Positions 1,527 to 57,215 of a stretch of 64,000 nucleotides of DNA are shown here, one piece after another. This DNA comes from Bispira polyomma (lineage: Eukaryota), in the NCBI GenBank assembly GCA_965649765.1, contig OZ287748.1, forward strand, positions 36,952,001 through 37,016,000, written 5' to 3'. The position numbers and the translations under genes are program-made. The notes under the pieces are model-generated. The model saw nothing but the letters and a program-made list of their open reading frames with translations, searched no databases and was not told where the DNA came from. Every line of letters begins with the position of its first letter. Position 1 is the first letter of the stretch.

Positions 1527-4500
1527 CCGGTGAAACGCAAAATAGTGCACCCTAATAAATAGTGAATCCCTTACTTTGAATTTTTGCGGGATACATTATT
1601 ACTCTGTCATATTTTGCACCCCTAACAATAGAAGGATTAAGGGGTACATAATTTGGCAGTGAAATATTGTATCCCCATCCAAAAAATGCACCATTTGTCA
1701 ATGGAGTAAACTGGCCTGAGAGCAATGCACTCTGGATCAGTACGGTCTGTTCCCTGTATCAATAATGTCAATATATGCACTAATGTGTTAGGGAGATTTC
1801 AGATTTTTTTAGTGATGTATTACTAGTATTAGTGTCTGCACTCTGATGTGTCAGAGTAGTATTAGTGTATCTATGTTATTGGCAAGTGCCTGGTGTGTGT
1901 GTTCGAGTGAACACGGTATTGTTTTTTGGTCTCTTTGACCTAGTATATGTGTTGCAATGTCAGGGACATTGGTGTGTTTCTATTTTAAGTGTTTCAGCTG
2001 CTCCTATTTCTGGGAGGTATTTGTTCATGACCATGCTGTGTGGGGAATTACTCTGAGGGGAGCTTGGGCCCAGTTGAAATCATTTCCCCCAGTTGGGGGT
2101 TCATTCTTGATTATGTGGCTGGAAAGGAGCTAGTGTTTCAGCACCTGCCCACCTGCTCCTTAGTTATAATTACTTTTTATGGCATGATTATGCCATTGCT
2201 TATTGGCATAATCGTGCTTTCCTATGGAAAGAGGGGGGAGTGGGGGGTTATAGTGGGGAGAACGTATGTAACCATGGTGATTTTCTGTCGACAGGGTAAT
2301 GTCTGAACTTACAAGGATTTCAGCTTTTATATTTGGCATACATATGTAGTCTGTTTCAGTGACGGTCCATTTTTAATTTGGTGTCAATATAGCCAGAAAT
2401 AAGTCAGAAATAGCCATTTTCTGTTTAGGGATCGTGAGCTTTGACTGAAGGGTCTATTACCGCCCATTTCCGGTGTCTCGGTTTCTAGAATGATCTCGTC
2501 AGCTGGTTCATTCATGGATAGTTTTCGTTGTTGTTGTGAATGAAACATATAGAACATAGTAAGGTCACGTGATCTTCTGGGCATGAGCAGTGAAACGATC
2601 GATATTCCTTGCTAATTTATTCCCACGAAAACGTTACTGGGACCTTCTACTGATCGAGATCGCTTCTTTGATGTTTCCGGAAATAGCTTCGTCACTTGTC
2701 TGAGTTTGCAGTAAAAGTTCTGCGAAAACCATATAAAAATAGAAATAAGATACGTTATTTAAACAAATTGCTATTTCTTAACATTGAAGTTTAATCACAG
2801 TTTTTAACAGATCTCGGCTCATTTATATGTCTAGACAGGGGCCTGTTTTGACAGTATAATCAGTTCCAGGTGAAAGTTGGCAAGAGTAGATATATACACG
2901 TTTTCTGTGCCAATAAATTATATTAAACATAAAAAAGGGTACTTGCTTCCATTCGGTGGTTCTGCCTTCTTTATTTATTGAATATTCACAGATTTCTAGG
3001 GAAAACGATATACAAATTATTTGTAATTAAAGTAGGTCACACTTAACAAAAACAGGCCCGAAACTGACGTAACACTTCAAAACGAGGTTGAGATGTACCT
3101 ATCATTCATAATGCTGTACATAATCTCAACCTCGATAAATTGGTGTCGCGAAAATATCCTGCAAAAAACAAAATTTTACTTAATATTTACTGCATTTAAT
3201 AGTTATACCTTCATCCATATTTAACCCTAAATTTTCGGTTTTGTATCAGCGGAAAGCTATTTTTTGTGCTTTTTGACAGTCTGGACAGTTACCAGATCCA
3301 ATGAATATTAGTTGAGCTTTGTAAAGAACTTGTTGTAAAAATCTTAAAAGTTTTGAGATAAATAGGCATTGATCAAATTATGATTTCTCTGTAATTACTT
3401 AAGCTAAAATACACTTTCTGACCCTTTTTACAAAATTAAATTATGATTTCTCTGTAATTACTTAAGCTAAAATACACTTTCTGACCCTTTTTACAAAATT
3501 AAATTATGAATTCTCTGTAATTACTTAAGCTAAAATACACTTTTTGACCCTTTTTACAAAATTAAATTCCATTAAATATTAATTGAGATATTACAGTCTT
3601 TATTTTATACATATTTCGTCCATTGTGAATTTGGTACATGCAGACACACATGTTGTTATTTATGGTATAAGCGGCTGGTTTTCTTAATCTAATCTAATCT
3701 AGTCGTACTTTTATAGCACTTAATCTTTGTACAACAAATTCTAAGGCGCAACAAACCCAAAAATTAATTCAAACTGCAAATGGTGAAAAAACTTCTTATT
3801 AGTAAAGCATTTTCCTTAAATTTAATATAAATGGTGATTATGCGATGAAATAGTTCTTCATTTTCGGAAGACAGTGCAAATATCTAAATTTAAAACTTGT
3901 AAATAGAAAGTAATTTGCCATACATTCATTTTGAAGAGTGATTATGTGATGAAATAGTCACTTAATAGTTGTAATACAAGTGTAGGGTAAGTTTTGTTGG
4001 AGATTCTTTATGTTAAAATCGAAAAATTTTCAATTTTCGCAAATGCGCTTTGATCCGATTTCTAAAAAGCCCTAATACTAGGACATTAGTTATGTAGTTT
4101 GACTCTGCCTGTGCTGCTGATCACAAAGCTGAAAGAATTTTTAAAATCAGACAGTTATTAATGGAGATATGAGTGTTTAAAGTTTTTATACATTGTTAGT
4201 CCATATACAAAATTCCGTCCACTATTTTGGGTAGTTACGGAGGTAAAATCCCCTAAATCGGCCTAGATCTTGGGAGGTAGCTCTGTATGGAGGTAAAATC
4301 GCCTAAAATCGCCTAGATCTTGGAGGTAGCTCTACAATCGCCCTTGAAAATCGCCTAAATCTTGAACGATGAACATAATTTTTTAAAGTACGCCGAAAAC
4401 CCCAACGAGCATCATTCATTATTTTCGGCTTTGTTGTGGCATTATCATGATATGGCTGCCAGGCCATTCTCCTCTTGTTACAATTTATCATATAACTTAT

Positions 4501-6201: not shown

Positions 6202-6378
6202 CAAGGAGAAAGACTCTGTCTGTTCATCCTCTATAAGGGTAGCCACTGTATCCCAGCCCCAGTGTTGTATAAAGGCCTTACGGGCGGGGTTGTGGGAGGA
6301 GTCAGCAGCTGCCAATCTAAAGAATCCAGGGTACTTCTCCCTGTCACTCAAAGCAGGGGAGGTGGCGCCATGAGAAAC
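6202..6378 (-). CDS. GABA-B-R3: GABA-B receptor R3-like subunit, exon 4
   Basis: Acceptor tttgtcAG, donor TTG|GTAAGT, 177 nt, phase 0/0; VSHGATSPALSDREKYPGFFRLAAADSSHNPARKAFIQHWGWDTVATL (SPALSDR and DSSHNPAR motifs). Confidence 0.95.
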
Positions 6379-10800: not shown

Positions 10801-10938
10801 CATCAGTAAGTTCCAGTAGGGCACTATTTCCCCAAGAGTGGTGGCTACTTCTGAACAGGAAGTGGCAATGAGCAACAAAAGTTGCTGCTTCCGGTACATG
10901 AGGTCATAAAAGGTGTCTGCCCCAACGCCTGGATCACA
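10801..10938 (-). CDS. GABA-B-R3: GABA-B receptor R3-like subunit, exon 3
   Basis: Acceptor tttcAG, donor ATG|GTATGG, 138 nt, phase 0/0; CDPGVGADTFYDLMY...SCSEVATTLGEIVPYWNLLM (CDPGVG and VPYWN motifs typical of R3). Confidence 0.95.
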
Positions 10939-12804
10939 CTGAAAGTACAGGAAAAATAAATACAAATTATGTTTATTTCTATTTAATAGCTGAATTCCTA
11001 GAATTTCAGTGTACTGGGTGTAGCCATGTTGAAGGTAATTCTGAAAACAATATTCTTACACAATAAATATCATGGAATCACAGTTGGGGCTCCACATGTA
11101 CTAAAGCAGTATTATGGTTTATAGTGCTGTCCTTAAGGTTTGGTGCTAAGAAGGTATTCTAAACAATATATCCAGTCAATTTTACCATATTTTTGCTTTT
11201 CATTTTTCATGCATTGATATAGATCCAAACTGGTGACAATGTATGTTCTTGGGGTTGTTTTCAACAAGAATGTATAGCCTTATAATACAGCATTGGTCGC
11301 CATCAGAAAACAGTTGTTTGTTGACATTTAGCCTAATATGATGTTGTGACGTGCCGAGCTACAAATCAAATAAATGCTGAAAATGATGGAATACTTTATT
11401 CAAAAAGATAACAGGATCTGTAAAATGACAAAATGACCAATGTGGCTATACCAGTAGTTGAAACAGGGTCCCACTGTTTACGAGACCAAAAACAATTTTT
11501 AACCCACCTAACTACTAAGCTAAACTAGTTATCTTTATCAGGTACATCAGAAAGTTATAACAATATATTGGTTATTTGTATCGGATACATTACTCAACTG
11601 CAGTTATTCTGCGTAGGTTATTGTTTAGCTTTGTAATGTAATGCAACTGATAAATAATTTGTGTTTAATCTGTTATATCTGATACTATAGCTGGTATTTC
11701 ACACTTCATCTCAAACTCACCCTTTTCAAGGTATTTAATCCTATTTCCACATTGGGAGACACTTAAAGATTAAATCACTATAAAATGAAAAAAAATGGGA
11801 TTGAAGAAAATGAAAGCTATAAGGGAGACATATTTGCTTTCAGAAACACATAACAAATGGGAAATTCTACTGAACTACAAGTATTAATCTAAAAAATAAA
11901 TATCAAAATCTAGTTATATATGCAACCTTACATTATCATTATCGTGCTAGATATCCAATTACATTTTCCAAAAAAAAAAAAAAGAGTGAGATGAATAAAC
12001 CATAAAATGGATATAAACTAGGTGAGAGTCTAGTCATAACAAAGCAGATGCTTCTAATCACAAGGCCATTGTGTGGACCCCCTTGAAGGGGTATGGCATT
12101 TTGCAGTATGTGATTACATAACTAAATATACATCAATACATGTCTGGCGATACAGCCACATATCTTCATGGGAAGACAACAGTTGTAGGTGTGTTTTGAA
12201 CAAACACCCAACATTTACTGTCAACACGAGAGACTTTTCTAAGTTCTTGAACCTTTAACTCCTTTTGAGATTTGTTGACAGCAAATATACAGGCTACTGC
12301 CTTGAATAAATCTCTTTTGTGTTAAAAAATAATGTTAAACTACCTGGCGAGTTGTAGCATGAATGGCCCCTTTTCTCTAGTTACTGATTCCCACTAAGAT
12401 GAACCTTATACCACAATTAATTTTAATCAAATAATACTACAAAAGTAATTAGAAAACTAAACATTTAGTTTGTAAGTTTTCTGATTATATATAATTTAGA
12501 TTTTTTATTTGTCAAGACAATTAATTGATCACCATTATCTGATTGACAAAACAGATTAATAGAAAATATATCCTCAATTCAGAACAAACCTCCTCAGCAG
12601 AGGAAAGAATATTTATTAAATTCAGATATGCAGCAGTAGTTGTTTTAATTTTAAGCTTAACGAGAGGACACGATTTTTAATTAAGGTAAAATACATCAGA
12701 TAATCTTCACTACGTTACAATATATTTGCCCAATTATCATCTATTGTGAAAGAAATTTATGAAAAAATCATGAAAATTTGAGAGTAGCAGCTGTTACAAA
12801 TGCC

Positions 12805-15800
12805 ACGGGCACAGTTTTGGGGTGTGGAAGTTGATGTCCTAAACACATACAAACAGTGGCAGAAATCGAAGGTGGCCATATTGTGTCAAGAAAATGCTTA
12901 TATTTGAAAATACGAGAATTCTAAGTTGGTAAAATAAGACCATATTAGTTATTGCCAGCGTCCAAGGGGTTCCTTCAATAACAAAAATATAGTGGCAAAA
13001 ATACATTTATACACTTTTGAATTAATAATTAGATAAGCCGAATTTAACAAACCCATTCTAATTGTTACCACATGGTGCAGGTTTGCACTATATAGAATAC
13101 TGTTATTTTAAAGTGAAACCCCCTGAATATACACCAACAAAAATGTAAATAACTGATACTCTATCTTAAGGCCTAGTCTTATTCAGATGTGCATTCATGA
13201 CCGTAGCGGGTGGCTTCGCCATGGATCTAGTGTTACACGACAGGCACATCTATCCATCGTCCCTCCTCCCATACCTCTCAAAAAACCCCCTAAGCCGAAG
13301 GTGAGGCGAGTTCCAAATGAAACTGTGACAGCCGTGCTTGTGGAATGAAACGTATCTTCACTGACCCCAACTAATGAGAAACTAAGACATAATAGACAAT
13401 AAAGAACCCCTACTAATACATCACTAAGTGTAACGAGCGTTCCCAAACTGCTACTAATGCGAAACAAGCAAAAACGAGCCACAATGAGCCAACACAACCT
13501 GTTAGTGATGAGAACCGCAACGAAAACTAATAAACACGTATATAACCCCCCCCCCCCCGCCCCCGCCCCTCCCCCCGACCAAACCCCTCACGAACGAGCA
13601 TTCAGCCCTCAATCTTTTGAAGAGTTCAAGACTTTCGTGCCTGCCAGACTAATACTCACAGAAGATTTCAAAAGTGCTCCTAATGTAGACAAACTGAAAA
13701 CCTGAAAATAAAGTTGAAACCTAATGTGACTGATCGTGTGAAAGACGTCCGTGGTGCGTTCGTGACGGGCATTCGTCCAAATGAGAACTGGGTCTTACTT
13801 ACATCAATATACACTTTAAACTAGTTTTGGAAAGATTTGTTGTGACCAAATACACTACTGTTTACTGGAATAAAAAGATTCAAAATGCCTGGTAGGACTT
13901 GGTGAACCCTAGATCCATGTGTTTGGGTTTCATTACGTCAGTTATATGGTCTGTGTACTTGACCCAATATTTGTCAGTTCCAAACTTTTTGGAGCTTAGC
14001 TATAGACAGAGAAGACTGCTGGTGAGACAAATACATAAGTTCTCTTGGGAAATACCAGAACTTGTACCCTACTTGATAAAAATGCCAGAGGTTTTGCAAA
14101 CTCAGAGTGTGTTAGAACAAGAGCTATTTGGACAGTGGTTTCAAAGGAAACCCCCAGACGTCTCCAATGAATAAACTCATCAATGACAGCAATCTTCAGT
14201 GATGTGTATGTGTTAAGGGGATTACAAAATACAACCTTTCCAAACTGAGCTAGGTGAAAAAGTTTTTGTAGGGGTAAAAAATCACCAGGGACTACACAAA
14301 CACCAGACAACTACACGGAAGTCCGTCACTTCTAAAGTCTTTAATTAAAATACAGCACACTCACACTCAAAAAACAATCAATATCCATACTGTGTTTTTT
14401 CTCTCTCTCTCATTTACTAACACTGAACTTAATTTTTGAAAACTGTGCTGTTAAATACTGTGTTATCATTACCTGCTAACTTGATACACACATGTGTATG
14501 TTGGCTTTGAAAACACTAATAACACATAAATGTCTGAAATTTGTTTGAAAGAAGTTTCATTATTGCCATCAGCAATGATTTTTACACAATTTACTTTACT
14601 ATTGGATACTTATAAACATGAAAACTCAAAAAAAGTTTAGTTAACTGTTTTATTTTCATAAAAGAGAATAATGTTTAATACAGCAACAAGTATTGTGTAA
14701 ATCTTTGGTGCTCAATTTACGAGTTATATACAAAGGGTGTTTATCAGAATTTATCAGAAAGCCAATTTTAAAATAACAGTATATTATTATTAGTAGGGGT
14801 ATGTTTTTAGGTGTACTTGAATTATTTCTCTTGTGCAAATCAAATGGATGAAATAAGTAGCACCGATTTTATCACTTAAGCAAAGTGATCATGTCAAGTA
14901 AGATGAAATTTACAAGAAGGCTTTGGACAGGGCCTTTTTCTCCAGAACACCAGATCTGAGTTGATCACATCAATTGGTCTACATAAGGGAAAGACACATC
15001 AAATGTTTGCACATTATCCCTGGGAAGTTTGAGGGAGGAAATGACTCCTTCAGTTTAATGAAACGTAGCTTTTCTATCAAAATAAAAGCACTTTGATCTT
15101 TCCATTTTTACCTGTCTTTTTATGGCAAGCCTTAATCATTTATGTGCAGTGTTATAAGAATATTTTATAAATATTCCTCAGACAATCTGTTTAAGTTCTA
15201 GGAAATTCTTGGAAAACCTGTTGAACTGATACTAAATAAAATGGCACTAAACCCCACACATATTATTTCCAAAAGCTGTGTATGTATACGGCAATATAAA
15301 TGGATGCATTGTATCATAAATGGTTTCCTCCTTGCTGCTAAATGATGTTGTGTCATATCTTCATAATTCTTTGTGAGTCCTTAGTTTTGGTTTAAGTCTT
15401 AGAACTTGGCAATGAGTGCTTGACATAGACAAGCTGGCAGACTTTGGTTCTTGCCTATTACATTAATCAGAGAGGATGTATAAAACAACTTTATGTAAAA
15501 TAAGCAGCAGTGATACTGTCAATAGTGTCAGTAATCTACTTGACTACGTCCTCTCTTGATGATGTAATATTAAGATTTATTGATAGCCATAGACCATGAT
15601 CTGTCAGTCCTTCCACGCTTGAAAATTGTGTTTTTTGTTTCAGAATATAGTCTTTATAAAAACTTATTTATGGATGCATAACTTAGAATTAAAAAAAATC
15701 AAATCAATCATGGAGTATTATGATACGACTATAAATTGTCAACTGTGACCTTAAACAGCTATTGCTGTAAATGAAGCTCTCTGTATTTTATTAGCTATGT

Positions 15801-17260
15801 AATAAAGAGATATCTTTATTAACAAATTAAATATACTGTTTATATCTATGCTATGATGACTCTATTATGAACTGGCTATAAAGATACAAATTTTCTATTT
15901 TAAGGCAAAGTAAGATAACCTTGAACAAAATGCAAATACACCATTGTAATAAACTTTAACCTGTCCATCAAATAATCCCCACAACCAAAACATCCTAATG
16001 TTTTCCAATATTATCGCTGGTACATCAAGAAGTATAATTAGAGTTTTTTTAAAAGAATCAGTGGCCAGGAGAAAAACCTGACACAACATCACAGAAAAGG
16101 TTTTTATATGCTATATTCTGTATGCTGACATCATTCCTTTGTGGGAGACCCCTCTTTAAACGCTGCGGTAGAAGTCAATTAACCACAAGGAAACCGCATT
16201 AGTTGATGTCCCCTTATTTGATCATGAAATGCTTTGAATTCAAGGGAACAGGAAATTTCATTATAGCAAATTTTGACAGTTGCAGCAAAATTTTGTATCT
16301 TGCTTGTTTTTTGTCAGTCTTTTTTATCTTCATCAGGACAATTCCACCCCCCACCCTGAGGCTTTTTCACTTTCCCTATTGAATAATATAGACTAAGTAA
16401 TATTGGTAAAATCATAGAAAGTTCTGGCTGCAAAAAGACCTTGACTCTTTATTCTTGTAATATTTGGTTGTAAATTTTTAGCTCTGCATGCTTTACCACG
16501 AATTAGTAGCGTCAATATATTTGGCACGGTTAATACAGGTTTCTTTACTTAAAATTAATCACAATTACCATAGCTTCTTGCAACACTTTTTGCATGAAAA
16601 ATATTGAATGTTCCCAATTGCTTTCAGAATGACATTTCAACACAAAAGATGAAATATCCAGTATCTGCTTGAATGAAAGTTTTTTGTGTCATGTTGAAGT
16701 TTGTCGTATCCATTCTGTAATGATACCTTTGACGCTAAAGAAACCCACACAAGTGACTGCAGTGAAAAGGTCAATTACAGGTTCATTATTGTTTCTGTTG
16801 AAAGTGCCTTTGTACATCAATCAACAAATTAGGGTGTCACATAAACATATCTCAAAGAAGACAGTCATATTCACGAGGGGTATGATGCGATTACATTAAG
16901 ACATATTGATATGGTCTTTGTCTAAACCCTCTATTTTCTTCGAGTACCTTTGACAAGAAACTTGGGCACCTATTGTGTTGCAATAAATGAACAGGTGGTT
17001 TTGTTCCAATTAAGTCAGAGTTCCCCCCCCCCCCCCCCCAACCTTTTCACTCGGCTGAATAGGTAATATGGATGTGACCTTCAAGGAGTTTAGAAAACCC
17101 ACACTGCCATTTAGTAGTAGTAATCCAAATGTGTCAATATGGGATGGTTTCCTCCTATAAGTGGCCATTAATGCTGATTACCAGAAGATATACAACACAT
17201 TCTATCACACTTTGTAAACATAACAATCTAAAGCTGGTTTTTGTCAAGAATTTAAATATT
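12805..17260 (+). repeat. Intronic tandem segmental duplication, copy 1
   Basis: Colinear matches to 17824-22510 (e.g. 12868~17918, 14045~18803, 14155~19388, 15386~20587, 17041~22274); outer boundaries approximate. Confidence 0.9.
13170..13794. mobile_element. PIF/Harbinger-type MITE (in duplication copy 1 only)
   Basis: Imperfect TIRs ggcctagtcttattcagatg and (rc) gacccagttctcatttggacg, flanked by TAA/TTA (TWA target); GC-richer interior; no counterpart in copy 2. Confidence 0.55.
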
Positions 17261-17535
17261 GTCACAGTTTGCCACAGTAAATATGTATATCCTAGATATA
17301 TTTACACATTCTGTTGTCTGTTACAATAAATATGGGTAACATATGAGACTTGCAATATTTGGGAAATTACAAAATAGCAAACCCCTTTTAGCAATGCAGT
17401 TAAATAGGCCACCCTGTTGTGATGAGTATAATATAATCTAAGTATTGATGTGGGGTTTTAGTTTGATATCACTCTCAATATGGTCACTGTAGACCATTGT
17501 CTCGAGTGCCTTGTGTAAGAGTTCAATCTCTGGAC

Positions 17536-17648
17536 CTGGGCCTGTATTCATAAAAGGACTTAGCCAGGTCTTAGGCTTAAATCTAGCACAAAAGTATACT
17601 GATTTAAGCCTAAGACCTGGCCAAGTCCCTTTGTGAATACGGCCCCAG
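17536..17648. mobile_element. Palindromic MITE (~113 bp)
   Basis: ctgggcctgtattcataaaaggacttagccaggtcttaggcttaaatc ... gatttaagcctaagacctggccaagtccctttgtgaatacggccccag is a near-perfect fold-back; related termini at 30356-30506 and 63684. Confidence 0.8.
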
Positions 17649-17823
17649 CATTTAGGATCAATGGTTAGACTCACTGGTGCCTAGAGTCAAACATTCTAAC
17701 CACTATGCCACAGAATTAATTTTTTTAGGGTTTACATAATTTTTAACTTTGGTAATGTTGTAAGATCAAATTTATTGGTGGAGGAAACCAGTACTTCTGA
17801 TTCATTTATAGTATTTATTATAA

Positions 17824-20800
17824 TGGGCACAATTTGGGGAGGGAATGGGCGAAAAGCCGACATTGCCCTAAACATGTATGTTAGGATGTTGTTGCGACTT
17901 ATCATAGTAGCAGAAGTGGAAGGTGGCCATAGTATGCCAAGAAAAGTGCTTAGATTTGTAAATATGAAGTATAAATCAAGAAAAGTCAAATTAATCATTT
18001 CTGGAGCACTAGTGTTCCACCAATACCAAAAATAGCGACCTGAGATGCCTGCTACCCTTTAAACACATGGGCGTATTAATATTATAGATAAGAATAATTT
18101 TTTTCATATTAGGTGTAAAAATGTATGTAGCAAAGTAAGAGTGTGCTATTTAAATTACCATTTATTTAATGTAGGCAGAAGGATGAAGTGCGGGTATTGC
18201 ATTACCTTGTCATAGAGTTAATCAGATTGCCCTCTAATTCTGTCCAGCACATTTCATTTTTTCTGTTGTTTTTATTTTCACATAAACTATACTGCCAAGT
18301 GAGTGCGTGATGAAGATAAGACATTTTTTCCCATTTAAGCCAAAGTGGGAGGGAATGTGTTATAGTTACCAGGCTTAAAGGGTTATGGTAGCATTTTACT
18401 TGACAAAATTGTTATCAAGGCAAAGGTAATGTGTTCTGACACTCCCTGTCTAGTTGTTGATTTTTTGTCAGCAGGATTATGCCCAAAATAAACTATTGAT
18501 TTTGTCCAAACTTTGTGGGGGCTAGGGCATAGGGAAAAGGAAGACACCATTATATGTTGGTGCAGGTCCAGATAAATGTAAGTAAGTAATGAGTACCTAA
18601 TGTGTCCTTTAGTGAGTATCTACCTTATATCTCAAAACACACTAGGAACTAGAGTGTTTTGGTCAAATAACTTAATCATCTACTCTTTATATGCTATCAG
18701 ATGGACGACTGTGATGGGTGTAAGTCTGTAGCTAAAGCACAGACCTTTTTAGGATTTGTGCAATAAACACAAAGTAAACTGCTGATGTAAGTCTAGTTAT
18801 TATGGGAAATACCAGAACATATACCTAACTTGACAGTGAAGCCAGAGGCAGGCTAAGCATTGTGCCTTAAGTGTTATGTGCATATAAATATTTTTACTAT
18901 GTGTCATAAACAAGCTCTACTCTATTCAAAAACATATTGATATTTTTAAAATAGCTTTATGTAATCGCAGTAATTAGTTAGAAGTTACAAATACAATAAA
19001 TGTACTTTTACAAAAATTATTTTGGAGTTTCATTATGAAAAATGGTTTTGCAATTTCAGAGTGTATTGGCACAAGATTTTTTTGGTGTAGTGTATGTATT
19101 TGGGATTACAAAACACAGCATAAATACACTGCACTAGGTCAATAAATCTGAAAATTTGTGGGGAAAAAGTATTAAAGTGATAAAACAAACACTACTCATC
19201 AAGTAAACTGTGTTGTACTTATTCAAAAACATATTGATATTTATAAAATAGCTTCATGTAAAAGAATCATTAGTTGGAAGGTATAACATTATAAATGTAC
19301 TTTTAAAACAAAGACAGAGTTCCATTGTGGTGACAATGGTGTTGCTAATATAGAGCTTTTTTGGTAGCATTTTTTGAATAAAAAAACCCAGACGTCTCCA
19401 TTAAAAAAGTAACACTGACAGCAATTTGAAGTAGTGTATGCATTAATAATTACAAAACACAACCTAAATCAACAAATTTTTGTTGGTCAAAAAGTAACCA
19501 GAGACAAGTCAAACACAAGACAACTGCTTAGACCACTGTCACGTCTAAAGTCTGTAATTAAAATACACCACCCTCACACTAAAACAATCAATACCCATAC
19601 TCGTTTTTCTCTCTCATTTGCTTACCAACATTATAGATAAATTCCTTAACACTATAGATAAATTCCTTAAACCTGTGCTGATGAACACTGTGTTATCACA
19701 ACCTGCTAACTTTATACACACAGGTGTATGATGATTTTCAAAATATTAATAACACCCATATTTTATGTTTGTTTGAAATAAGTTTCATAATTGTTACAAA
19801 ACACTAATTTTTTTTCCCACTATTTACTTGGCTATTATATATTTATGAACATAAAAAGTCACCAAAGTTTAATCACAGTTTTATCTTGACAGAACAAAAT
19901 AATGTTTAATACAGCAATACGTATTTGTAGAAAGTTTTAAACTAACTGCATATTACCGGTATTATTAGTTGTGGTATGTTTTTGTGTACTTTAGTGTATT
20001 TCCCTTGTGCAAATCAAATGGATAAAATAAGTAGCAGCGATTCCATCACTTAAGAAAAATGATCATGTCAAGTTAGATAAATTTACAAGAAGGCTTTAGA
20101 CAGGGCTTTTTTCTCCGAAACCCCAGAGCTGAGTTGATCACATCAATTGGTCTACATAAGGGAAAGACACGTCAATTGTTTGCGTGTTATCCCTGCAAAG
20201 TTGGAGGGAGGAAAGGACTCCTTCAGTTTAATGAAACGTAGCTTTTCTGTCAAAATAAAAGCACTTTGATCTTTCCATTTTTACCTGTCTTTTTATGGCA
20301 AGCCTTAATCATTTATGTGCAGTGTTATAAGAATCTTTTATAATTAGTTCTCAGACAATCTGTTTAAGTTCTAGGAAATTCTTAGAAAATTCTTAGAAAA
20401 ACTGTTGAACTGGTACTGAATAAACTGACACTGAAACTTCCCACATATTATCCCCAAAAGCTGTGTATGGATATGGCAATATAAATAGATCCATTGTGTT
20501 ATATATGTCTTCCTTGCTACAGAAAGATCTTATGTCATATCTTTGTGATCTTGTCCTTTGTGATCTTGTCCTTTGTGATCCTTAACTTTGGTTTAAGTCT
20601 TAGAACTTGGCAATGAGTGCTTGACATAGACAAGCTGGCAGACTTTGGTTCTTGCCTATTACATTAATCAGAGAGGATGTATAAAACAACTTTATGTAAA
20701 ATAAGCAGCAGTGATACTGTCAATAGTGTCAGTAATCTACTTGACTACGTCCTCTCTTGATGATGTAATGTTCAGATTTATTGATAGCCATAGAACATGA

Positions 20801-22510
20801 TCTTGCACTCCTTCCATGCTTGAAAATGGTGTTTATTTGTTTTGGATTATTGTCTTGGTCTTTGTAAAAACTTACTTATGGATGCATAACTTAGAATATA
20901 AAAAATTTAAGTCATGGTGTATGATACGACTATAAATGGTCAACTATGAACTTAAACAGCTATTACTGTATAAATGACAGTATCTGTATTTTACTAAATA
21001 TGTAACAAAGAGATATCTTTATTAACAAATAAAATTAGCCTTTTATATCTATTCAAACTGTCTATTTTAAGGGAAGGTAACATAGTGTTGAACATTATAC
21101 CACTACATCCTTGTAATTTACTTTATAATGTCTTCGCAAAATAAAATGCCAAAAACTAAAATGTTTTCCTGTATTATGGTTGGCATAAAAAAAGTTATAT
21201 GCAGAGATGTTTTGAAGAATCTGCGACAAAGAGTAACACCTGACAACATTACAGAAAAGGTTTCCATATGCTATATTCTTCTGTATGCTGACATTACTTT
21301 GTGGGAGGCTCCTTTAAACACCAAAGTAGAAGACAATAGCCTGCTGGGAAACCACATTAACTGATGTCGCCTTATTCAATCATGAAATGCTTTGAATTCA
21401 AGGCAACAGGAAGTTACATTATAGGAAATTTTAACAGTTCCAGCTAAATTTTGTATCATTATGTCAGTCTTCTCTAGTTTCATCTGTACAGATTCCCCCA
21501 CAGTGTTCTTCACAGTCTCTCTCTATTAGATTACTACATAGACTAAGTAATAATGGTTAAAACATAGAAAGTTATAGCTGATAAACTAGCTTGTCTCTAA
21601 TTTTTGTAATATCTTGTTGCAAACTTCTAGCTCAGCATGTTTTAACAACAGAATCCATCAAGTGATGGATAACGCCATTGTAGTGTCAATATATCTGCTA
21701 TGGTTAATACATTATATTAGTTTAAATATCTCATAATTACCATAGCACAACATCATAGCACTACCATATAGCACTGCTATAGCACCAACCATATGTTGGA
21801 GATAACAAGTGTTAACGAGTGTTTTGCAATTGCTTTTAGAATGGCATTTCCTTGCCATAGAATAAATATCCTTTTTGTGCTTGAATGAAAATTCATCAGC
21901 CTAAAAAAGTAAAAATGCATTTTTACTATGATATTGAGGTTAATTGTATCCATTCTTTAATGATACGTTTGACGCCCACTCCAGTGACTACTGTGAAAAG
22001 GTCAATTACAGGTCCATTATGGTTTTCCGCTGAAAGTGCCTTTGAACATCAATCAACAAATTAGGAAGTCACATAAACATATCTCAAGGAAGACAGTTCT
22101 ATTTACGGGGGAAATAATGCCATTACATCAAGACATAAGGCATATTGAAATGGTCTTTGTCTAACCTCTCTATTTTCTTCCAGTATATTCCACAATAAGC
22201 CTGTGGCCTATCTCCACTATTGTTGCAATAAATGAATAGGTTGTTTGTTCCAATTAGGTCAGAGTTTTTCCCCCACCTTTTCACTCGGCTGAATAGATAA
22301 TATGGATGTGACCTTCAGGGAGTCCAGAAAAAGACAGCCAATTAGTAGTGGTAATCCCATACGGGTAATTAGACCATACAAGATGATTTCCTTGCGTAAG
22401 TGGCCATTAATGGTGATTATTAGAAGCTACACCACACATTGCAGCCCACATTTAAAAAAACAAAACAATCGGAAGCTGTTTTTCCTAGATAAATTTAAGA
22501 TTTACATTCA
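17824..22510 (+). repeat. Intronic tandem segmental duplication, copy 2
   Basis: As for copy 1; background identity roughly 75-80% by eye, with near-identical blocks. Confidence 0.9.
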
Positions 22511-24799
22511 TATCACATAATTCGTATAATTTAGCACAAAAAATTAGCACAACCAGTTTTAACTATGCACTTAAGTATCTCATTATGTAGTGATGCAAGC
22601 TTGGAATTGATATACGTGGATGGAAATGGATAGCTGTTGTAAAAGGATTCAAACTCCAGACCTACATCAATGATCAGAGCTGAGCCTCTCTAATTTAAGG
22701 TTTTAAGTTTTCTCCTAAACCCAGAAAGTGTTTCTAGTGATCTAAGGGAACCATTCCATAGCATAGGGTAAGCGATCGAGAAAGCTCTCGATCCAGCCCA
22801 CTTGGTGGGTTTAACAGAGGCAAGTTTCATCACATGGCAAACTGGGCTTTTATTTGTTAAAGAGCACATAAATCACCTATCTATGGGTGTCATGGCATAG
22901 CTAGTGACACCAATGAAAAGATAAATTGATGACAGTTGTAATAACATGTCAGCAATTACTCTAGCACTGACAAATATATTGTGTTAAATATTGATGTTTG
23001 TACTACACTGGTTTTCATCTAGATGGATTACATACATACATTATGGTGATGGTCATACTTTTAAAAATAACATAAATCTCGAGTTTCAACATAAAAAACC
23101 GTGTAATCAATACCAGTAAAATAAATGTTTTATGTGACTAAACACCTGCAATACCTTGTGAATGTATTCAGAAAGAAAACATTTTAATTATTGTTATACT
23201 AAGATCTTGATCCAGAGCAACCTATGAATATTGGGTTGTTTAGTGTTTATACCAAACCTTGTTTCTATATCTTTTTTCAGACTACAGAAAAAAATGAAAA
23301 CATAGTCTCAGGTTATAGAGGAATATTGATAACACCTTTCATTGAGAAAGAAAAAAAGAACATCCTAGCGGTTTTGGGAAGTGATGTAACACAGTTACTG
23401 GTCGAAAAGTAAGGTAATATTGTGTATTATAGACACATTATGACCCATTGTGTTTAACAGTAGACATTTGATATGGCATGTAAAGGTCTAGAGCTAACAA
23501 AATGCAAAATGAAGATTAAAAATTATACTAGTCTTATGTTCTAGGGGGGAAAGCGTCACCATCTGTTTAAAAGGAAACCCATTAGTTTACGTTATGTTGT
23601 CTTGCCAAGGCAGAAGTATGATTTATCAACCAAGCTATTTGTTTTCGCATGAGGAATCAACATCTCCCCCATAAGCTAAATGGTCAGTTACCACCCTTTT
23701 ACTTGTAGTTTTTCCGTGCAATGGTGCCATTTTCTGTCTTAATCCACGTGAATGAGATTAATGAGTTTGTGTATGAAGATATTTATCACTGGCACTCTTG
23801 ATATGGTCAGCCCCTTTAACCAAACATGACACTAGCATCTAGGAAATATTTCCCAGTGGGATAGCTATAAATCAATGTACATACACACATAGCAAACCTG
23901 CTGTGGTATTTTTTTTACTGCTGTGGTGGTCTTAAATTCAAAACTAGATCTTGTACGTTACTTCTTTATTGGTACTGTAACAGAACTTAGAAATAAAACA
24001 TATAAATATATTTAAACATTGAAATGACCTGTTATGTTTCCATTTCAAATTTGTTTTTCAATTACACTGTTCACATGGCTTATTTTTTACTAATTCAGAA
24101 AACCTGTGTGGATTTATTTTAGGCTCATGTTAATCATTTTCATTAGTTCCCTGTTTGTTTAGTTTTAGTTTAGAATGTTTGTTTGGAACAGCCTCTTGCC
24201 AGGGTTTTGAACTACGACAAATGAAGGCTTCCAATGACTAAGTTGTTTTGACGGCTTCAGAGTAAGGTTACACAATAACTAATACCAATGAACTTTATCA
24301 GCAGACACCAGCCAACTTTGATAGATTAATGTAGATGATAGATAGCAGAGGAAAGTTGAGAAATATCTTACCTTTGTTCTTTATGTTAAATCCCCATGTA
24401 GTTAATCAGCATATTTGGTTATGTTAAATATGTGACGTATACGAAAATTAAGACAGACATGTCATGACTTTAAAAGACATTGAAGAAATTAGTTATTTCT
24501 GCCAGAAAACTTAAGATATCCCAAAGAAATTCTACTGAAAAAAACCATATGCTTGCTTCAATGGATCCATTTTTGAAAGCGATATCAACAAATTGTTGTA
24601 AGATACTATCTGTAAAGTAAATATTTTGATGAAGGTGGTCTTGCGATGCCATCTATGAGGGAACTAACTGTAAGGCTTGATGATATTCAAAAACAAGCAA
24701 CGGTGATAGGATTGTATTGGACTCGTGCAACCATTTCTTGTATTTTTGGAAAACAAATAATCACACATAATAGTCAAGCAGATGGACACTGCTGGATTT

Positions 24800-24998
24800 T
24801 TTAATTTAGTTGGGTTTTACGGCGCTTTCAACAGCTTAGGTCATATCATGATGGGAAAATTTAATGGTAGAAGAAACCAGTGCTAAACCACCAGTTTTAA
24901 CCACGTACCTGACAAACCTTTCTACATGAAGGAACAAAGTTGATTCAAATGGAGGTGAGAGACCAGTGATTGTGAAGTAAGCACTATGCCACCATAGT
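24800..24998 (-). mobile_element. tRNA-derived SINE, same family as 31636-31890 (degenerate)
   Basis: gaggtgagagaccagtgattgtgaag is the exact reverse complement of cttcacaatcactggtctctcacctc in the 31.6-kb SINE; further remnants near 17670-17795 and 50135-50260. Confidence 0.75.
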
Positions 24999-25117
24999 CA
25001 TCGCTGGAACATATACTTGTAATGAAAGAGTTCTAGTTTGTCCAATACTACTGTATATACTCCTATCTTAGAAATATTAAAACAAGCAATAAGATGTTTT
25101 ACAATAGAAACAGGTCT

Positions 25118-25288
25118 CTTAGATATTTAAGGTTGACATAGGAGTGTCAGACTGACTTAGATATTTAAGGTTGACATAGGAGTGTCAGACTGACTTAGGT
25201 ATTTAAGGTTGACATAGGAGTGTCAGACTAACTTAGGTATTTAAGGTTGACATAGGAGTGTCAGACTGACTTAGGTATTTAAGGTTGA
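25118..25288. repeat. 38-bp minisatellite, ~4.5 copies
   Basis: Unit cttagRtatttaaggttgacataggagtgtcagactga at 25118, 25156, 25194, 25232, 25270. Confidence 0.95.
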
Positions 25289-41599: not shown

Positions 41600-41834
41600 A
41601 AATGTGTGTAGGTTTGTAGTCTCATATCACCTCTATTGAGCTCTCAGCTAACTTTACAGTTTACATCACCAGCCTGGGTTCTCCCACTTGGAATCAATTG
41701 TTCTGTCTCAACTCACTCAGGAAGCATACTAGCCATGCTCCCACATGCGGCACACAAGACCATAACACCCATTAGTGGCCAGGTACCCATTTATACACCT
41801 GGGTAGAGTAGGACAACTTTGTGTAAAACACCTT
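41600..41834 (-). mobile_element. SINE body, split by the Ngaro insertion (head at 48619-48700)
   Basis: ccaggtacccatttatacacctgggtagag...gtaaaacacctt resembles a conserved SINE central domain in reverse; it resumes as gtccaa...ggatcgaacc (reverse B box GGTTCGATCC) directly after B2. Confidence 0.65.
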
Positions 41835-42043
41835 TGCTATACACGTCTACTTCAGGAGACTGCTATCTCAGTCCACGTTAAATATAACACACCACCTTAA
41901 TTAAAAATTAGGTATAGCTATCTTCAGGGCATTTTACCATAGCTATTCTAGGGCCAATCACATTGCAGAAGTAATTAACAGTTCCCGGCTTTTCTTGGCA
42001 TTATACTGCCATATTGAAGCAACAAGTGAAAATTATTTTAACT
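41835..42043 (+). repeat. Split direct repeat A1
   Basis: Near-identical to 47292-47515 (a few substitutions and one ~15-bp indel). Confidence 0.95.
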
Positions 42044-42153
42044 TACATGGAGATTTATACAACATTTGTTTTTAGTGAATTGTTTTAAACGTTATATTTT
42101 ATCTTTTACTACATTATTAGCAAGGTGTTATTGGTTTTGTGTGTTTTACAATT

Positions 42154-43356
42154 ATGGGGAGGACGAGTAAAACTCCTCTGCAAGCAAAGAAGGCAGCCAA
42201 CCGGAAAACCAAGGTGTTAAGAGCTACAAGTGGGACAGAAAGTTCACAGGTAACTGATAATATTGTTCGGGCTCTTCGTAGCCACCTCGTCGAGGTTGAC
42301 GAACCATTAACTTCTACATCGAATGCTGCTCTGTTCCAGGCAGATCCCCAAATGCTTCAACCACCTATTAATTCACAGCCACCAGTAAATCCACCTAACG
42401 AGATGTTAGAAATTCTGAAAAGGTTAGAATCAAGGCTTGAAAAAGTTGAGGTGAGAACGGCTACAGTCACCAACTCGGCCAGTAATTCCAATCAGTTCAC
42501 GAGCAGTGCTGCAACTCTCGGACGGGGCAGCTCCACGGCTAACAGTCTACCTCTGCCATGTTATACTCCACCTACGGGAGCCGGAATTTCCCAGCAACCA
42601 CCACTGGGGCCCACACACCACAAATACAGACGAGATGGTATTGTGCCCAATTTAGAGACCTTTCGCTCCATGCCTGACGTGCAGTCAGCAGTCACACGTC
42701 AGTTAGCCAGTTATGAGTCGTTGGCGCAGAGGGAACTATCCCAAGGTAAGCAGAACCAGAGGGTCAAGTCTGGCAGGTTTAATTTGACTGATGTTGCCAC
42801 AGTTGATCCAAGATACCGTTGGCCCAACGAGGGCTGCTTAGCAACGAACGTCACCCCTTCTTCTCGTAAACGGCCCGCCTATGATGACCTGTCGCTACCA
42901 CAATGGGCGGCAGGACAAATCTCGAATGCGCTCCTTGTCGCAGACAACACAGCCATGAGGGACATGATGACCCAGGTAGTATTGGCGCTTCGAGACGCTT
43001 CGTCGTTACCCTGGCCCGTAGTGAGGACAGCATGGGCGTCTAACATGCACGAAGTTGAGGAGGGACGCTTGACGTGGCAAGATCACACGCAGTGGGCGCT
43101 GAATCGAATGAGAGCGTCCCAGTTAGCTATGGTTAATAACAATCACCAGGGTACATCCAATGCCACAGAACAGAAAACAATATGTAAGCTATTTAACAAT
43201 GGTAAATGCAGTCACAAAAATGACCATGGGAATTACAAGCATCAATGCTGGTATTGTGCCAAAGTCTTAGGAAAAGAATCTGGCCACCCTGAATTTAAGT
43301 GTTTTAAGGCAAACTCAAGTAAGCAATCTGACAGTCAAAATATAAAAAGCAGCTAG
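42154..43356 (+). CDS. Ngaro element 1 gag-like ORF1 (open, ~400 aa)
   Basis: Likely start ATG 42154 (MGRTSK); KSGRFN..DP..RWPNEGCL..YDDLS..QW.AGQ core shared with the 52641 ORF; C-terminal Cys/His finger CKLFNNGKC...H...HQCWYC...HPEFKC. Confidence 0.9.
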   Translation: MGRTSKTPLQAKKAANRKTKVLRATSGTESSQVTDNIVRALRSHLVEVDEPLTSTSNAALFQADPQMLQPPINSQPPVNPPNEMLEILKRLESRLEKVEVRTATVTNSASNSNQFTSSAATLGRGSSTANSLPLPCYTPPTGAGISQQPPLGPTHHKYRRDGIVPNLETFRSMPDVQSAVTRQLASYESLAQRELSQGKQNQRVKSGRFNLTDVATVDPRYRWPNEGCLATNVTPSSRKRPAYDDLSLPQWAAGQISNALLVADNTAMRDMMTQVVLALRDASSLPWPVVRTAWASNMHEVEEGRLTWQDHTQWALNRMRASQLAMVNNNHQGTSNATEQKTICKLFNNGKCSHKNDHGNYKHQCWYCAKVLGKESGHPEFKCFKANSSKQSDSQNIKSS

Positions 43357-46091
43357 GGAGATATTCGACAACCAGTTAAGCAACGAGGAACATTAGTCAA
43401 TACTGTAGATTTAAGAGTCAATGAGGACAACTTTTCTAGTAAAAATAATGTTAGTCATGTAGTAAAACAAAGTTGTAAAAAGAACTTATTTGGAAGGGGT
43501 AATGAAAATCAGTTAAATTGTAATAATAATATGTTACCAAATGTAATATTTGAGAACATTTGAGAAACTTATGGTGATGTTGAGTATATCCAGAGTCAGC
43601 AGTAAATGTTTCCACCTACCAGAGTGCAAGAGAAGGTCGACTTGGACTCTGGGGAGTGTAGCCTCAACTGGTGTGGGGTACTTAAAAATCTTAATGACAA
43701 AATTTATATAGGCCACATACAGAATGACCACACTGATAGGAAGGCCATCAGAGCAAAAATTAGTGTAACCAATTGGTCCTTATCTGATCTGGCCACTGGC
43801 AAGAATTTTAAAATCATTTACATGGAAGGACTTCATTGTTTGGTAAGAGGTTTTTACTATACCTATGTTGATAATGTCACTGGTTTGCAATGCTACACTC
43901 CCCTGGACTTCAAACCGAATGGTATGTTATATATTATTAATGTTTTTGAGCCATTGATTAATAGAGACCATGAGATAACAATGGTAAATTTAGATGGCAT
44001 TGAATATGTTTCGGTTAAGCAACAAGAGCAAGCCAGTAATGATTTCTATTTTTACCAAAGAGGTATGCAATGTCTAAATTCAAATGGTAAGACATATACT
44101 CAATTTGTAGAAAATATAATTGATAAGTTAATTGAACATTGTGAAAATGTAGAATTAGTCAACACTGATGTAAATGTAGAGCCAACAGACAAGGCTGTAC
44201 AGAATGGACATAGTAGCTCTGACACTACTAAAAGCATGGTAAGTTATTGTGATGAAAAATATACTCACCCTGCGTCGTCCGAGTTCTTCTCCCAAATGAC
44301 TTACATGACTAAGGCTAGTGAACCAACCAATAGGGTGGTCACGGACATTAACGACAAAGATAAGACTGTAGGGTTCATTGCTCTTTCAGATACTGATTTT
44401 GAATTTCAAGGACCAGTTAAGCAGCCAATACAGATAAAATCAGTGGAAGACATGATTACAACTGCTCAAATTATAAAACAAACAGGAGTTCCAAGTTATA
44501 GATCAGCTAAAATTCCACTAAGTTCTGGACTTAACACACAGGCTTGGCAGCACATGCTGCAGGATTATCCTGACAAGCTGTTACTCCAATATATTACATT
44601 TGGTTTCCCTTTATGTTTAAGGACTCCTACTAAATTAGAAAATGTTAAGGTAAAGAATCATTACTCTACAGTATCCCTATGAGGTTGGGGCATATCTTAA
44701 AAAAGAAACTGCTTTAGGGGCCATGTTAGGTCCAGTTAAGGAAGTAAACACTTCAGACTACCATTGTTCGCCACTTCTCATTAGACCCAAAGATATTAAT
44801 AAATGCAGAGTAATTTTGAATTTGTCACATCCTTATGGCAACTCCCTTATTGACAATGTCGACAGGGACAAATTCGATGGCGTGTCATTTGTATTAAAAT
44901 TTCCGACAATTGATGACATCACACAAGCCATACGGGATACTGAAAACGCAACCTTATTTAAAATTGACGTGGCCAGAGCGTTTAGAAACTTAAGGGTTGA
45001 CCCTGTGGACGCAATAAAGCTAGGAATTTCTTGGGAAAATGAATACTCTGTGGACCCTGCAATTGCGTTCGGGTGGGTTCATGGAAGTGCGGCTTTTCAG
45101 GGATGTACGGAAGCAATTACAGCACATATGTAGAAACAAAGCTTTAAGGTATTCGGATAAATAGATGATTATGTTTGCGTTACTCATAAGGATAAAGCCA
45201 TGGAAGGTTTTAACAAGCTTCATACATTGCTACTGGAGCTTGGTCTACCGATGAACCAGGATAAACTAACTCCACCAACTGATAAGCTTACTTGTCTAGG
45301 AATCGACTTTGATATCACTAAAGGAATTATAAGTATACAAACAGACAAGTTAAAAGAAGTATATGACGTTTGTATTGAGGTTCTCCACAAACAGTACATA
45401 TCTAAGAACAAATTCCAGTCATTATTAGGCAAGCTCCTATATATTCATAAATGTGTTACTCCGGCCCGAACCTTTGTGAACAGACTATTGGCTGAATTTC
45501 GAGCTGGCCATGCGAATAAGCGTTTTAAAGTAACTAATGAAATAAAAAAACGACTTGCTATGGTTCAAGAAATTCTAAGAACACTACAATGGTATTAATT
45601 TCATTAACCATAACGTTATACCATATGCAGACGAGCTGCACTTAGACGCTTGCCTCACAGATTTTGGGGGCGTTTGGAATGACGAGGTTTATGCCACTCC
45701 GTTTCATGACATTTTTGATGGAAAATTGACAATTGTACACCTCGAGATGCTGAACAATATAATCGCTTTACGTGTATGGGCTGAGAAGTGGAGACATGGT
45801 AGTCTTATGATCAACTGTGACAACATGGCTGTGGTTCTGGCTGTCGAATCACAAAAAACCAGAGATAGTTTCCTGGCCTTATGCTTAAGAAACATCTGGT
45901 TACTAACAGCCACTTATGACATTACTCTTAAAATTAGACATATACCTGGTAAGAAAAATGTAGTTGCAGATGCACTGTCTAGACTGTATTCAGACATGGT
46001 ATCGGATCAAGAGCTTATAAATAAAATTGACAGTAATTTTAAATGGCACCAAGTGCCAATTGAATATTTCAATTTCGACTTATCTATATAA
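43357..46091 (+). pseudogene. Ngaro element 1 pol (N-terminal extension, RT, RNase H), disrupted
   Basis: HCSPLLIRPK, FKIDVARAFRNL, AFGWVHGS, catalytic YIDD read as *IDD (~45158), HLDACL, NCDNMAVV, HIPGKKNVVADALSR; several stops and frameshifts. Confidence 0.92.
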
Positions 46092-46097
46092 TTTCAG

Positions 46098-47072
46098 GTT
46101 CTACATACATCAGCCAAGCTCTGATGGTGTCAGCCAATGCCAGAATTGACCTAGCTTTAAAACCAAAGACAACTACAGCATACAATGCACAGTTTAAGAC
46201 CTTTTTAGCCTTTCTTAAGTTCACAGGAATTGCTACCGTTAATGTACATTCAGTTATTGCCTTTTTGGAGTACCTTGTGCAGAATCAGTTATCACCAGGG
46301 GCTATTAACAACTACTTAGCAGCTTTAAAATTTGTAGCATCCAAGTTGAAATGGAATCTGACTCCATTTACACATAATGCAGTCTCACTATTCACTAGGA
46401 GTTTCACACATAATTCAGCTTTCAGACCAAAACCTAGAGGCATTTTTACCATAGAACAGCTTATTCGCATATCTAGAGCTTGTGAAATCCTGGATGACCC
46501 CTTACTCTTTAGGACTATCTTCTTAGTAGCATTTTTTGGATTTTTGAGGTTATCAAATATAGCACCTCATTAAAAATCAGCCTTTGACAACACCAGGCAC
46601 TTCCTAAGACAGGATGTCGTTTTTGGTCACCCAGGAGCTCACTTGATCTTAAAATGGGCCAAATTTACAAAATCGAACTGACACTCACATAATTCAGATT
46701 CCAGTACTGGACAATTCACACATTTGCCCAGTGTTAGCCCTACAAAGATTGCTTTCGTCCAGACAAATTTCGGACAAGGCCCCACTGTTTGCATCAAAAA
46801 TTCCACCATATCACACAATTATCGATTCACATGTCAGATATGCTTTACAAAAGATTTTACAACACATTGGTATTCAACATAGTTCACATGGATTCCATGC
46901 CTTCAGAAGGTCGGGAGCCACTTTTGTATTCAATCAAATCGTCTCACTCCAGGACATTATGGCCCACGGATTATGGAGGTCATCTGCTGTGTGGACATAC
47001 TTACAAAATACTTCACAGGCTGCCTCAATGGTACCTTTAACCTTTGCCTCTGCCATCTCTCATTCCTCCTAG
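46098..47072 (+). pseudogene. Ngaro element 1 tyrosine recombinase, disrupted
   Basis: FFGFLRLSNI, LILKW, LCPV, HGFHAFRRSGA, HGLWRSSAVWTY (R-H-R-W-Y catalytic set); stop at 46571 and frameshift near 46665. Confidence 0.93.
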
Positions 47073-47079: not shown

Positions 47080-47515
47080 TTGGGGCTGTAAAAATTTGTG
47101 ATGTTTAAATAAATTTTTAAGCATTTTACTTTTTTATATATTATCATGTACATATACTACTAACATGTAAAAAATAAACCCTCAAAGTGAAATCTTTTAC
47201 TATCTGTGTTCATAAACTTGACTATAACTTACAAATTTGAGCTCTCTGATATAATTCTGACCTTCTATATCAACCTTAATAACGGGGACTGTGCTATGCA
47301 TGTCTACTTCAGGAGACTGCTATCTCAGTCCACGTTAAATATAACACACCACCTTAATTAAAAATTAGGTATAGCTATCTTCAGGGCATTTTACCATAGC
47401 TATTCTAGGGCCAATCACATTGCAGAAGTAATTAACAGTTCCCGGCTTTTCTTGGCATTATATAGCCATATTGAATTTGACTTCGAACAAGCAACAAGTG
47501 AAAATTATTTTAACT
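47080..47515 (+). repeat. Internal B1-A2 junction repeats
   Basis: B1 (ttggggctgtaaaaat...aacggggactg) abuts A2 (tgctatgcatgtctacttcagg...), reproducing the end-to-end circle junction. Confidence 0.95.
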
Positions 47516-56579: not shown

Positions 56580-56590
56580 TATATTTTCAG

Positions 56591-57168: not shown

Positions 57169-57215
57169 ACAGAGTTAATACTTGGTGTGAGAGAAATTTG
57201 TTTAATAGTCAAATT

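Follow-up and report, generated by a model that had tools for sequence, protein, structure and literature searches.

The splicing factor gene SF3B3 has a poison exon whose branch site is hidden by a conserved stem-loop in the last 120 bases of the preceding intron (Li et al. 2024, PMC11162794; this and the following comparisons refer to excerpts of the papers cited). Here we analyse a 183-bp block that occurs twice in one intron of a GABA-B-type class C GPCR gene of Bispira polyomma, within a window of 64,000 nucleotides (the whole stretch of DNA analysed, to which all positions refer). At best, the block works like the SF3B3 type of structure-gated poison exon, with exon use being a prediction. 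In both, a stable stem-loop lies within 120 nt ahead of the 3' splice site (a candidate site in our case), and the downstream exon (again a candidate) carries a stop; the branch-type A next to a paired base is likewise only a candidate here. In contrast to the SF3B3 type, the host is a GPCR gene and not that of a splicing factor, and the element is deep-intronic, present in two tandem copies and linked to a predicted exon.

Other described systems resemble the locus in part. Conserved unannotated intronic blocks have been read as rare stop-carrying exons, the cryptic poison exons of Margasyuk et al. 2024 (PMC11632617); these were shown by RNA-seq with a block of nonsense-mediated decay in human cells, whereas the conservation here is between paralogous copies only. 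Long perfect non-coding identity, explicable by overlapping functions, is also found in the intronic ultraconserved elements of Drosophila, which are mostly tied to transcription-factor binding (Warnefors et al. 2016, PMC4989106). Those elements were defined across 12 species and are immune to conversion, unlike our two copies, which lie 5.2 kb apart. Interlocus gene conversion has tract means of 50 to several hundred bp, acts mainly above 80% identity and is commoner between close copies (Mansai et al. 2011, PMC3924818). The identical patches in our close tandem duplicate (~80% identity) have the size of such tracts and fit this description; unlike plain conversion tracts, the patches coincide with a stem and with the best splice-type sites. 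Finally, some miRNAs of invertebrates are described in which the inter-arm region is long and a stretch next to the dicing site is unpaired (Javad-zada et al. 2025, PMC12553114). Extended-loop hairpins such as mir-989 share with the locus an imperfect duplex of 22-25 bp, central bulges and an inter-arm region of >42 nt; unlike them, the locus has no family match, a basal stem at chance level and an unstructured, invariant loop.

In the excerpts of the literature compared, which took in PMC11632617 and bioRxiv 10.1101/2025.10.29.685298, we found no description of this element and none of truncated or alternatively spliced GABA-B isoforms with such an element. A 14-nt motif from the stem arm did not occur in the literature searched.

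The host intron and its duplicated segment

Three coding exons define the host gene, and the first two of them enclose the intron:

30567..30745, minus strand: coding exon before the host intron, where the flytrap domain starts, ending in phase 0 (weak Pfam Peripla_BP_6 match, tblastn, splice sites)
10939..30566, minus strand: host intron of the GABA-B-type class C GPCR gene, 19.6 kb, with protein homologues continuous across it
10801..10938, minus strand: host coding exon downstream of the intron (Pfam ANF_receptor, tblastn)
6202..6378, minus strand: next host coding exon (Pfam ANF_receptor, E 7e-14; homologues named GABA-B receptor)

GABA-B receptor subunit homologues from Lingula, Gigantopelta, insects and Branchiostoma align continuously over all three exons (the identity of these named full-length homologues being only 59-63% over one exon). 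Thus no coding exon is missing in the intron. The two copies of the module described below are separated from the nearest coding exon by 4.5 and 9.7 kb and belong to a duplicated segment of the intron:

14145..17262, no strand: duplicated unit copy 1, ~3.1 kb, a mosaic of ~24%, 12% and 0.3% mismatch without coding signature
19380..22505, no strand: duplicated unit copy 2, from its alignment to copy 1; the copies are 5.2 kb apart
15386..15568, no strand: 183-bp block copy 1 (core 2), exact match to 20587-20769, supported by contig breakpoints
20587..20769, no strand: 183-bp block copy 2, exact match to 15386-15568, supported by contig breakpoints
15031..15161, no strand: core 1 copy 1, near-identical (129/131) and unstructured, containing the candidate donor 15112|15111
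20204..20334, no strand: core 1 copy 2, with the candidate donor 20285|20284

An earlier sequence-only reading had described 15386-15568 as equal to 20587-20769 base for base, and this is correct: exactly 183 bases match, and the match cannot be extended either way. Outside the two best blocks the duplicate has 452 mismatches in 2,324 aligned sites (19.4%) and 67 indels. If differences were independent at this background rate, a run of 183 bases would be expected ~3e-15 times, which excludes chance as the source of the identity. A three-state alignment model with mismatch rates of 24.4%, 12.1% and 0.3% assigned two segments to the lowest state, ~15056-15156 and ~15391-15563. The former belongs to core 1, which the first reading had overlooked; it lies 225 bases from the 183-bp block and is statistically alike, with 2/131 versus 0/183 differences (Fisher p 0.17).

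Two statements on the borders of the block hold in part. The flanks had been given as only ~75-80% identical, which does not apply to 15569-15598 (27/30), 15031-15161 (129/131) and 14830-15030 (89.5%); otherwise they are indeed ~19% diverged. Identity was said to end exactly where the long stem closes. This is so on the right side, whereas on the left it starts 70 bases ahead of the stem, so that the agreement between boundary and stem is one-sided. The block is real and unusual, yet it is less structured and less unique than first described.

A protein-coding exon in the duplicate was rejected, as in 14 gap-free segments there was no synonymous excess in any of the three longest listed frames; the block itself, having no changes between the copies, allows no such test. 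No Pfam match was found inside the duplicate (281 of 427 ORFs of at least 45 aa scanned). The surroundings of the duplicate hold further repeats. Left of each copy there is a diverged similarity between 12790-12920 and 17840-17970 (84% over 62 bp), raised depth at 17652-18229 suggests a low-copy repeat that is not part of the duplicated unit, and a second high-copy repeat lies at 22698-22800, just beyond copy 2.

Assembly, copy number and occurrence

Contigs derived from reads covering 14184-22853 break at 15415, 15539, 20616 and 20740 in runs X1 and X2. An exact repeat present in two copies leaves such breakpoints when words of 31 letters are used, and an artefact of assembly or polishing is thereby excluded. 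In run X3 only the two left breaks, 15415 and 20616, were present; the right side was not symmetrical. The three runs represent at most 2 samples of 1 study and are possibly the source of the window. Contig depth, counted at an 85% threshold and thus a rough guide only, was 7-29 in the bins of the block (X1/X2) and like that of the flanks, which means that no large repeat family is involved. In the bin 17536-17648 it exceeded 190,000 in sum, against ~15 for single-copy sequence; this bin holds a MITE-like element with 48-bp arms. For the block itself, an origin as MITE, interspersed repeat or MITE relic was rejected, since there was no multi-copy signal at the 85% threshold and the window holds two copies.

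The listed carriers of the block are the 3 runs of 1 study, all from one organism, and relatives are possibly unsequenced. There was no RNA data set among the listed carriers, from which nothing follows for expression. A scan of metagenome contigs with a two-motif pattern gave 0 matches. An exon-based scan gave one locus (3,156 nt, 45% identity), which is too distant and too short. The contig pieces listed from both samples do not differ within the block; contigs drop alleles, and hence their uniformity says nothing on polymorphism.

One significant stem in the block

Folding predictions were made for both strands and gave the following features:

15456..15569, minus strand (putative working strand; folds on both, more strongly on plus): stem-loop copy 1, arms 15545-15569 and 15456-15480 with a 64-nt inter-arm region (z and duplex energy)
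20657..20770, minus strand (putative): stem-loop copy 2, z -3.70 on minus and -5.07 on plus

The block had been described as foldable into a multi-stem RNA. Its long stem was borne out, with a duplex energy of -28.3 kcal/mol on plus and -22.1 on minus, and compared with shuffled sequences the region 15456-15569 reached z values of -5.11 (plus) and -4.14 (minus), none of 200 shuffles being as good. As had been stated, the best register contains non-canonical pairs, two G-U on plus (A-C on minus), and also two bulges; the first difference between the copies (A/G at 15569/20770) opposes T15456, so that the pair is kept on plus and broken on minus. The other proposed stems were not recovered. A second domain at 15408-15455 is absent from the predicted fold on both strands (15386-15455: z +0.28, -1.31), and in place of an inner hairpin between the arms we found 64 nt that fold no better than shuffles (z -0.22, +0.19). 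The z values for the fold of the block as a whole (185 nt) were -2.97 on plus and -3.16 on minus. Since the left 70 nt and the inter-arm region are at shuffle level, this signal comes entirely from one stem, 15456-15569, the only significant one.

The stem window was chosen to fit, and for that reason the background of the intron and of the 64 kb was checked. In the host intron, 3 of 340 tiled windows reach a z below -4. The 64 kb contain five other stems of -27.8 kcal/mol or better, and a stem of -28.3 kcal/mol or better was present in 2 of 10 shuffled 64-kb windows. Another equally strong stem lies wholly inside only 0.8% of the 183-nt windows of the 64 kb. A coincidence of stem and block by chance is therefore unlikely; a scan of many windows will still collect some such cases. 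The loop and the 70 bases left of the stem are as identical between the copies as the stem itself, and core 1 folds at shuffle level (z -0.91, +1.12). Thus structure alone does not explain the identity. Neither core showed long-range pairing with the three coding exons and their 150-nt flanks that was better than that of 8 random intron controls.

The Rfam check gave 0 covariance-model matches at gathering score in the 64 kb, the best E values of 1.3-8.4 being far below the cut-offs; the best miRNA match was mir-890, which scored 14.3 bits (E 3.7) where the cut-off is 56. On this basis known Rfam ncRNAs (snoRNA, snRNA, ribozyme) were rejected. For snoRNAs, the Rfam matches were at chance level and by eye no rightly ordered H/ACA or C/D box pair is kept in both copies. 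The block does not vary between the copies, so that no covariation is measurable. The picture of a multi-stem ncRNA thus fails, as only one stem is significant, no Rfam family matches and covariation is impossible. What stands of the initial proposal, an unannotated structured ncRNA or intronic RNA element, is the preference for an RNA-level element over pure chance, as given by the 0.8% of windows. Most likely, the block belongs to a regulatory module with two cores, situated in a segment of the intron that was duplicated.

Candidate splice sites in both cores

All GT and AG sites of the host intron were scored with generic frequency tables; the sites discussed were picked after looking. The candidates are as follows:

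15455..15481, minus strand: candidate weak 3' splice region in the 3' arm of the stem, with putative branch-type A 15481 (-27), pyrimidine tract 15476-15470, AG 15456-15455 and a 32-nt AG-free zone
15112..15454, minus strand: candidate poison exon copy 1, 343 nt, with a putative in-phase stop at 15394-15392 after 20 codons and stops in three frames
20285..20655, minus strand: second copy of the candidate poison exon (371 nt), with the 20 initial codons and the stop as in copy 1
15020..15111, minus strand: candidate 92-nt GT-AG mini-intron copy 1, ending at acceptor 15019
20193..20284, minus strand: candidate mini-intron copy 2, 92 nt without indel, acceptor 20192 being first in three of four models

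The best-scoring sites are the paralogous acceptors 20192 and 15019, which rank 1 and 2 of 1,080 AGs under both 20-nt models and 1-4 and 7-22 under the 12-nt models. The candidate donor 15112|15111 ranks 19 of 1,155 GT sites, lies inside an 85-bp identical run and is 92 nt from the acceptor in both copies. Depending on the model, 0.013, 0.039 or 0.17 donor-acceptor pairs this good are expected on one strand of a 770-nt zone; the mini-intron is unremarkable under the 12-nt T-rich model, with 0.34 for either strand. Joined in phase 0, the acceptors 15019/20192 each give Gly-stop. A second acceptor (14978/20151) is found within a 42-bp identical run, and an ATTAAA common to both copies (14679/19910) could end a terminal exon.

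The candidate acceptor at 15454 ranks only 64-307 of 1,080 AGs depending on the model. The chance of an equally scoring AG in the 7-nt slot at the foot of the 3' arm is 0.023-0.074, and the plus-strand mirror of this AG scores worse and is poor in copy 1. By an estimate from site counts, one of the ~12 AGs of a 213-nt core is expected in the top 6% about half the time. On the minus strand, the pyrimidine tract and the A of the AG lie in helices of 8 and 11 bp, with pairing probabilities of mostly 0.8-0.9; both helices exceed the 7 continuous pairs that define the SF3B3 type in the 120 nt ahead of its 3' splice site. The yUnAy branch candidate at -27, one of 8 such candidates in 120 nt, is paired or beside a pair in the minimum-energy fold. 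The predicted in-phase stop is ~280 nt before the candidate donor, i. e. beyond the 50-nt criterion, with all frames closed, and six bases before the identity of the block ends. In this model, core 2 corresponds to the last ~115 candidate intron bases and the exon to 6 bases past the stop, and core 1 to the donor and the mini-intron; the middle of the candidate exon is 82% identical between the copies, with indels. Clear enrichment of a splicing-factor motif was not seen.

A possible interpretation, which we favour tentatively and at somewhat less than even chances, is that the block makes up the 5' half of a module in the receptor pre-mRNA, namely a structure-gated poison exon of the SF3B3 type that was duplicated and probably polished by conversion, with the exon itself being predicted. 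According to the prediction, the branch site, the pyrimidine tract and the AG of the stop-carrying exon are all masked by the 25-bp stem. With the stem closed, the candidate exon would be skipped and full-length receptor made. With the stem open, the upstream phase-0 exon would be joined to 15454 and read for 20 codons up to the stop, and the resulting message would undergo nonsense-mediated decay or end early. From donor 15111, the candidate exon would be spliced either to the next coding exon or, over the mini-intron of 92 nt, to 15019. The two cores would be kept similar by selection acting on signals that overlap; the few differences left, those in the loops included, would then be erased by occasional conversion between the copies, which are 5.2 kb apart.

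Weighing the explanations

The odds given here for all readings are a judgement from likelihoods and rough priors, with no computed posterior. We favour the poison-exon model because it places both cores at once, because stem and block coincide beyond chance (0.8% of windows), because an AG sits at the foot of the 3' arm (chance 0.023-0.074), because in both 20-nt models the first and second place among 1,080 AGs go to acceptors 20192 and 15019, and because conserved stem-loops hiding branch sites have a precedent, e. g. in SF3B3 (PMC11162794). The minus strand is transcribed anyway as pre-mRNA, thus a splicing module needs no extra promoter, and the position of both cores on candidate splice sites points to an intronic splicing element and not to a stand-alone ncRNA. 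The model is weakened by the mediocre acceptor at 15454 and the post hoc choice of sites, which remain candidates. It is also weakened by the strand preference of the predicted fold, since the stem is 6 kcal/mol stronger on plus, where the mismatches are G-U, and since the first difference between the copies keeps the pair on plus and breaks it on minus. Counter to the splicing reading, the plus-strand purine-rich tracts behind the pyrimidine tracts could be transcription-factor sites. A further weakness is that neutral conversion alone reaches runs of at least 183 bases in 3-41% of simulations.

Conversion and an enhancer had been named as alternatives from the start, and both are still live, each being unlikely to the same degree. 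Neutral interlocus gene conversion would mean recent tracts of 100-200 bp between tandem duplicates, with the stem as a chance or fossil inverted repeat without function. The simulation figure comes from the 16 of 54 parameter sets that had enough runs near the observed divergence to be scored; the parameters are free, which weakens the support for conversion, and the figure shows that identity alone proves nothing. Conversion is suited by loops and unpaired flanks as identical as the stem, by a three-level mismatch mosaic that could reflect tracts of different ages, and by the published tract lengths and preference for close, >80% identical copies (PMC3924818). Yet it gives no reason why the longest tract should hold one of the strongest stems of the 64 kb (0.8%), nor why the two best acceptors of the intron should lie within the conserved zone. 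Probably, conversion contributes under every reading. The other alternative is a duplicated DNA-level regulatory module, an enhancer or internal promoter under strong selection, in which the stem would be inverted factor sites or chance. Such a module would agree with a core 1 that is conserved like core 2 and yet unfolded. Core 2 contains three TGACA/TGTCA sites, one of the only 4 TGATTAAT sites of the intron and TAATC sites, and core 1 has TTTATG and a TCF-type site; we take the motifs of both cores to be of homeodomain and TALE type, with a TCF type in core 1. Also within the block, a TATA box (TATAAAA) at 15479 is followed after 30 bases by an initiator-like CAGT; the two (15479-15512, plus) could be a core promoter, or chance in AT-rich DNA. 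The Drosophila intronic ultraconserved elements provide a precedent (PMC4989106). However, the motif counts are small raw counts, an enhancer with a redundant duplicate would have to evolve at <7% of the neutral substitution rate across all 183 bases, and the 25-bp stem is left unexplained.

Somewhat less probable still than these two is a plus-strand antisense hairpin RNA gene, co-duplicated with core 1 as its promoter, in the simplest case a lineage-specific miRNA with a 66-nt loop and the arms 15459-15480 and 15547-15568. The stem is stronger on plus, with G-U pairs; it has at least 16 paired bases between two ~22-nt arms, the threshold used for miRNAs, and 22-nt arms with 2-nt overhangs, a UG at -14 and an identity that ends exactly at the predicted 3p end would all fit. 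Long-loop miRNAs of invertebrates are a precedent (PMC12553114), but that work, in the excerpt compared, reports divergent loops, and here the loop and 73 upstream bases are identical. A basal stem of ~11 bp is predicted on plus, but shuffled or random flanks do equally well (0.11-0.49 of them being as good); no CNNC is present at +16 to +18 on plus, and the inter-arm region lacks significant structure (see above). There was no mature or star match among 14,689 of 19,725 MirGeneDB rows, so that a known family could be missed; in the part of the table compared, loops of at least 63 nt make up about the first 80 rows, the longest listed loop being one of 36 nt for molluscs and one of 91 nt for annelids. 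Furthermore, no plus-strand ORF scanned below 42 kb has a Pfam match.

A possible link to A-to-I editing

The poison-exon model can be extended by A-to-I editing, though we regard this as improbable, far more so than the model itself. The A-C mismatches would make the twin poison-exon switches leaky, and editing would close the stem, shut the acceptor and let receptor output rise. On minus, the A-C adenosines are at 15477 and 15464 in the contexts CAU and UAA, and the duplex geometry fits ADAR; ADARs prefer a UAG context, which neither of the two provides. When both adenosines were read as G, the predicted fold went from -30.0 to -39.8 kcal/mol, a gain in which the G stand-in overstates inosine and which any mismatch repair would bring in some measure by strengthening the fold.

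Other features of the window

A near-perfect inverted repeat of 30 bp with a 39-nt spacer (29881-29979, -46 kcal/mol) lies 600 bases from the upstream coding exon and is probably a MITE. Tandem repeats are present at 25118-25307 (38 bp) and 3372-3568 (63 bp). On the plus strand, a very strong donor-acceptor pair ~110 nt apart (35671-35783) has no Pfam match nearby; it may mark an intron in a plus-strand gene that has gone unrecognised ahead of the receptor exons. Further along on plus, 42121-47069 contains broken ORFs with RVT_3 and tyrosine-recombinase domains between the repeats 41832-42043 and 47289-47515, a layout which we take to be that of a DIRS-like retrotransposon. The region 52638-59521 (plus), with long ORFs, a reverse-transcriptase piece (55549-55878) and a GIY-YIG ORF (58760-59521), is presumably Penelope-like.

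Implications

If conversion alone made the block, the patch is nothing out of the ordinary and warns against taking identity between neighbouring copies for conservation. If the splicing reading is true, structure-gated poison exons would extend from splicing factors to an invertebrate neurotransmitter GPCR, the switch would have survived duplication as two working copies in one intron, and the exact junctions are predicted. Should the switch in addition be tuned by editing, neuronal editing would be linked to GPCR dosage via a deep-intronic RNA switch that is kept identical in two copies by selection and conversion.
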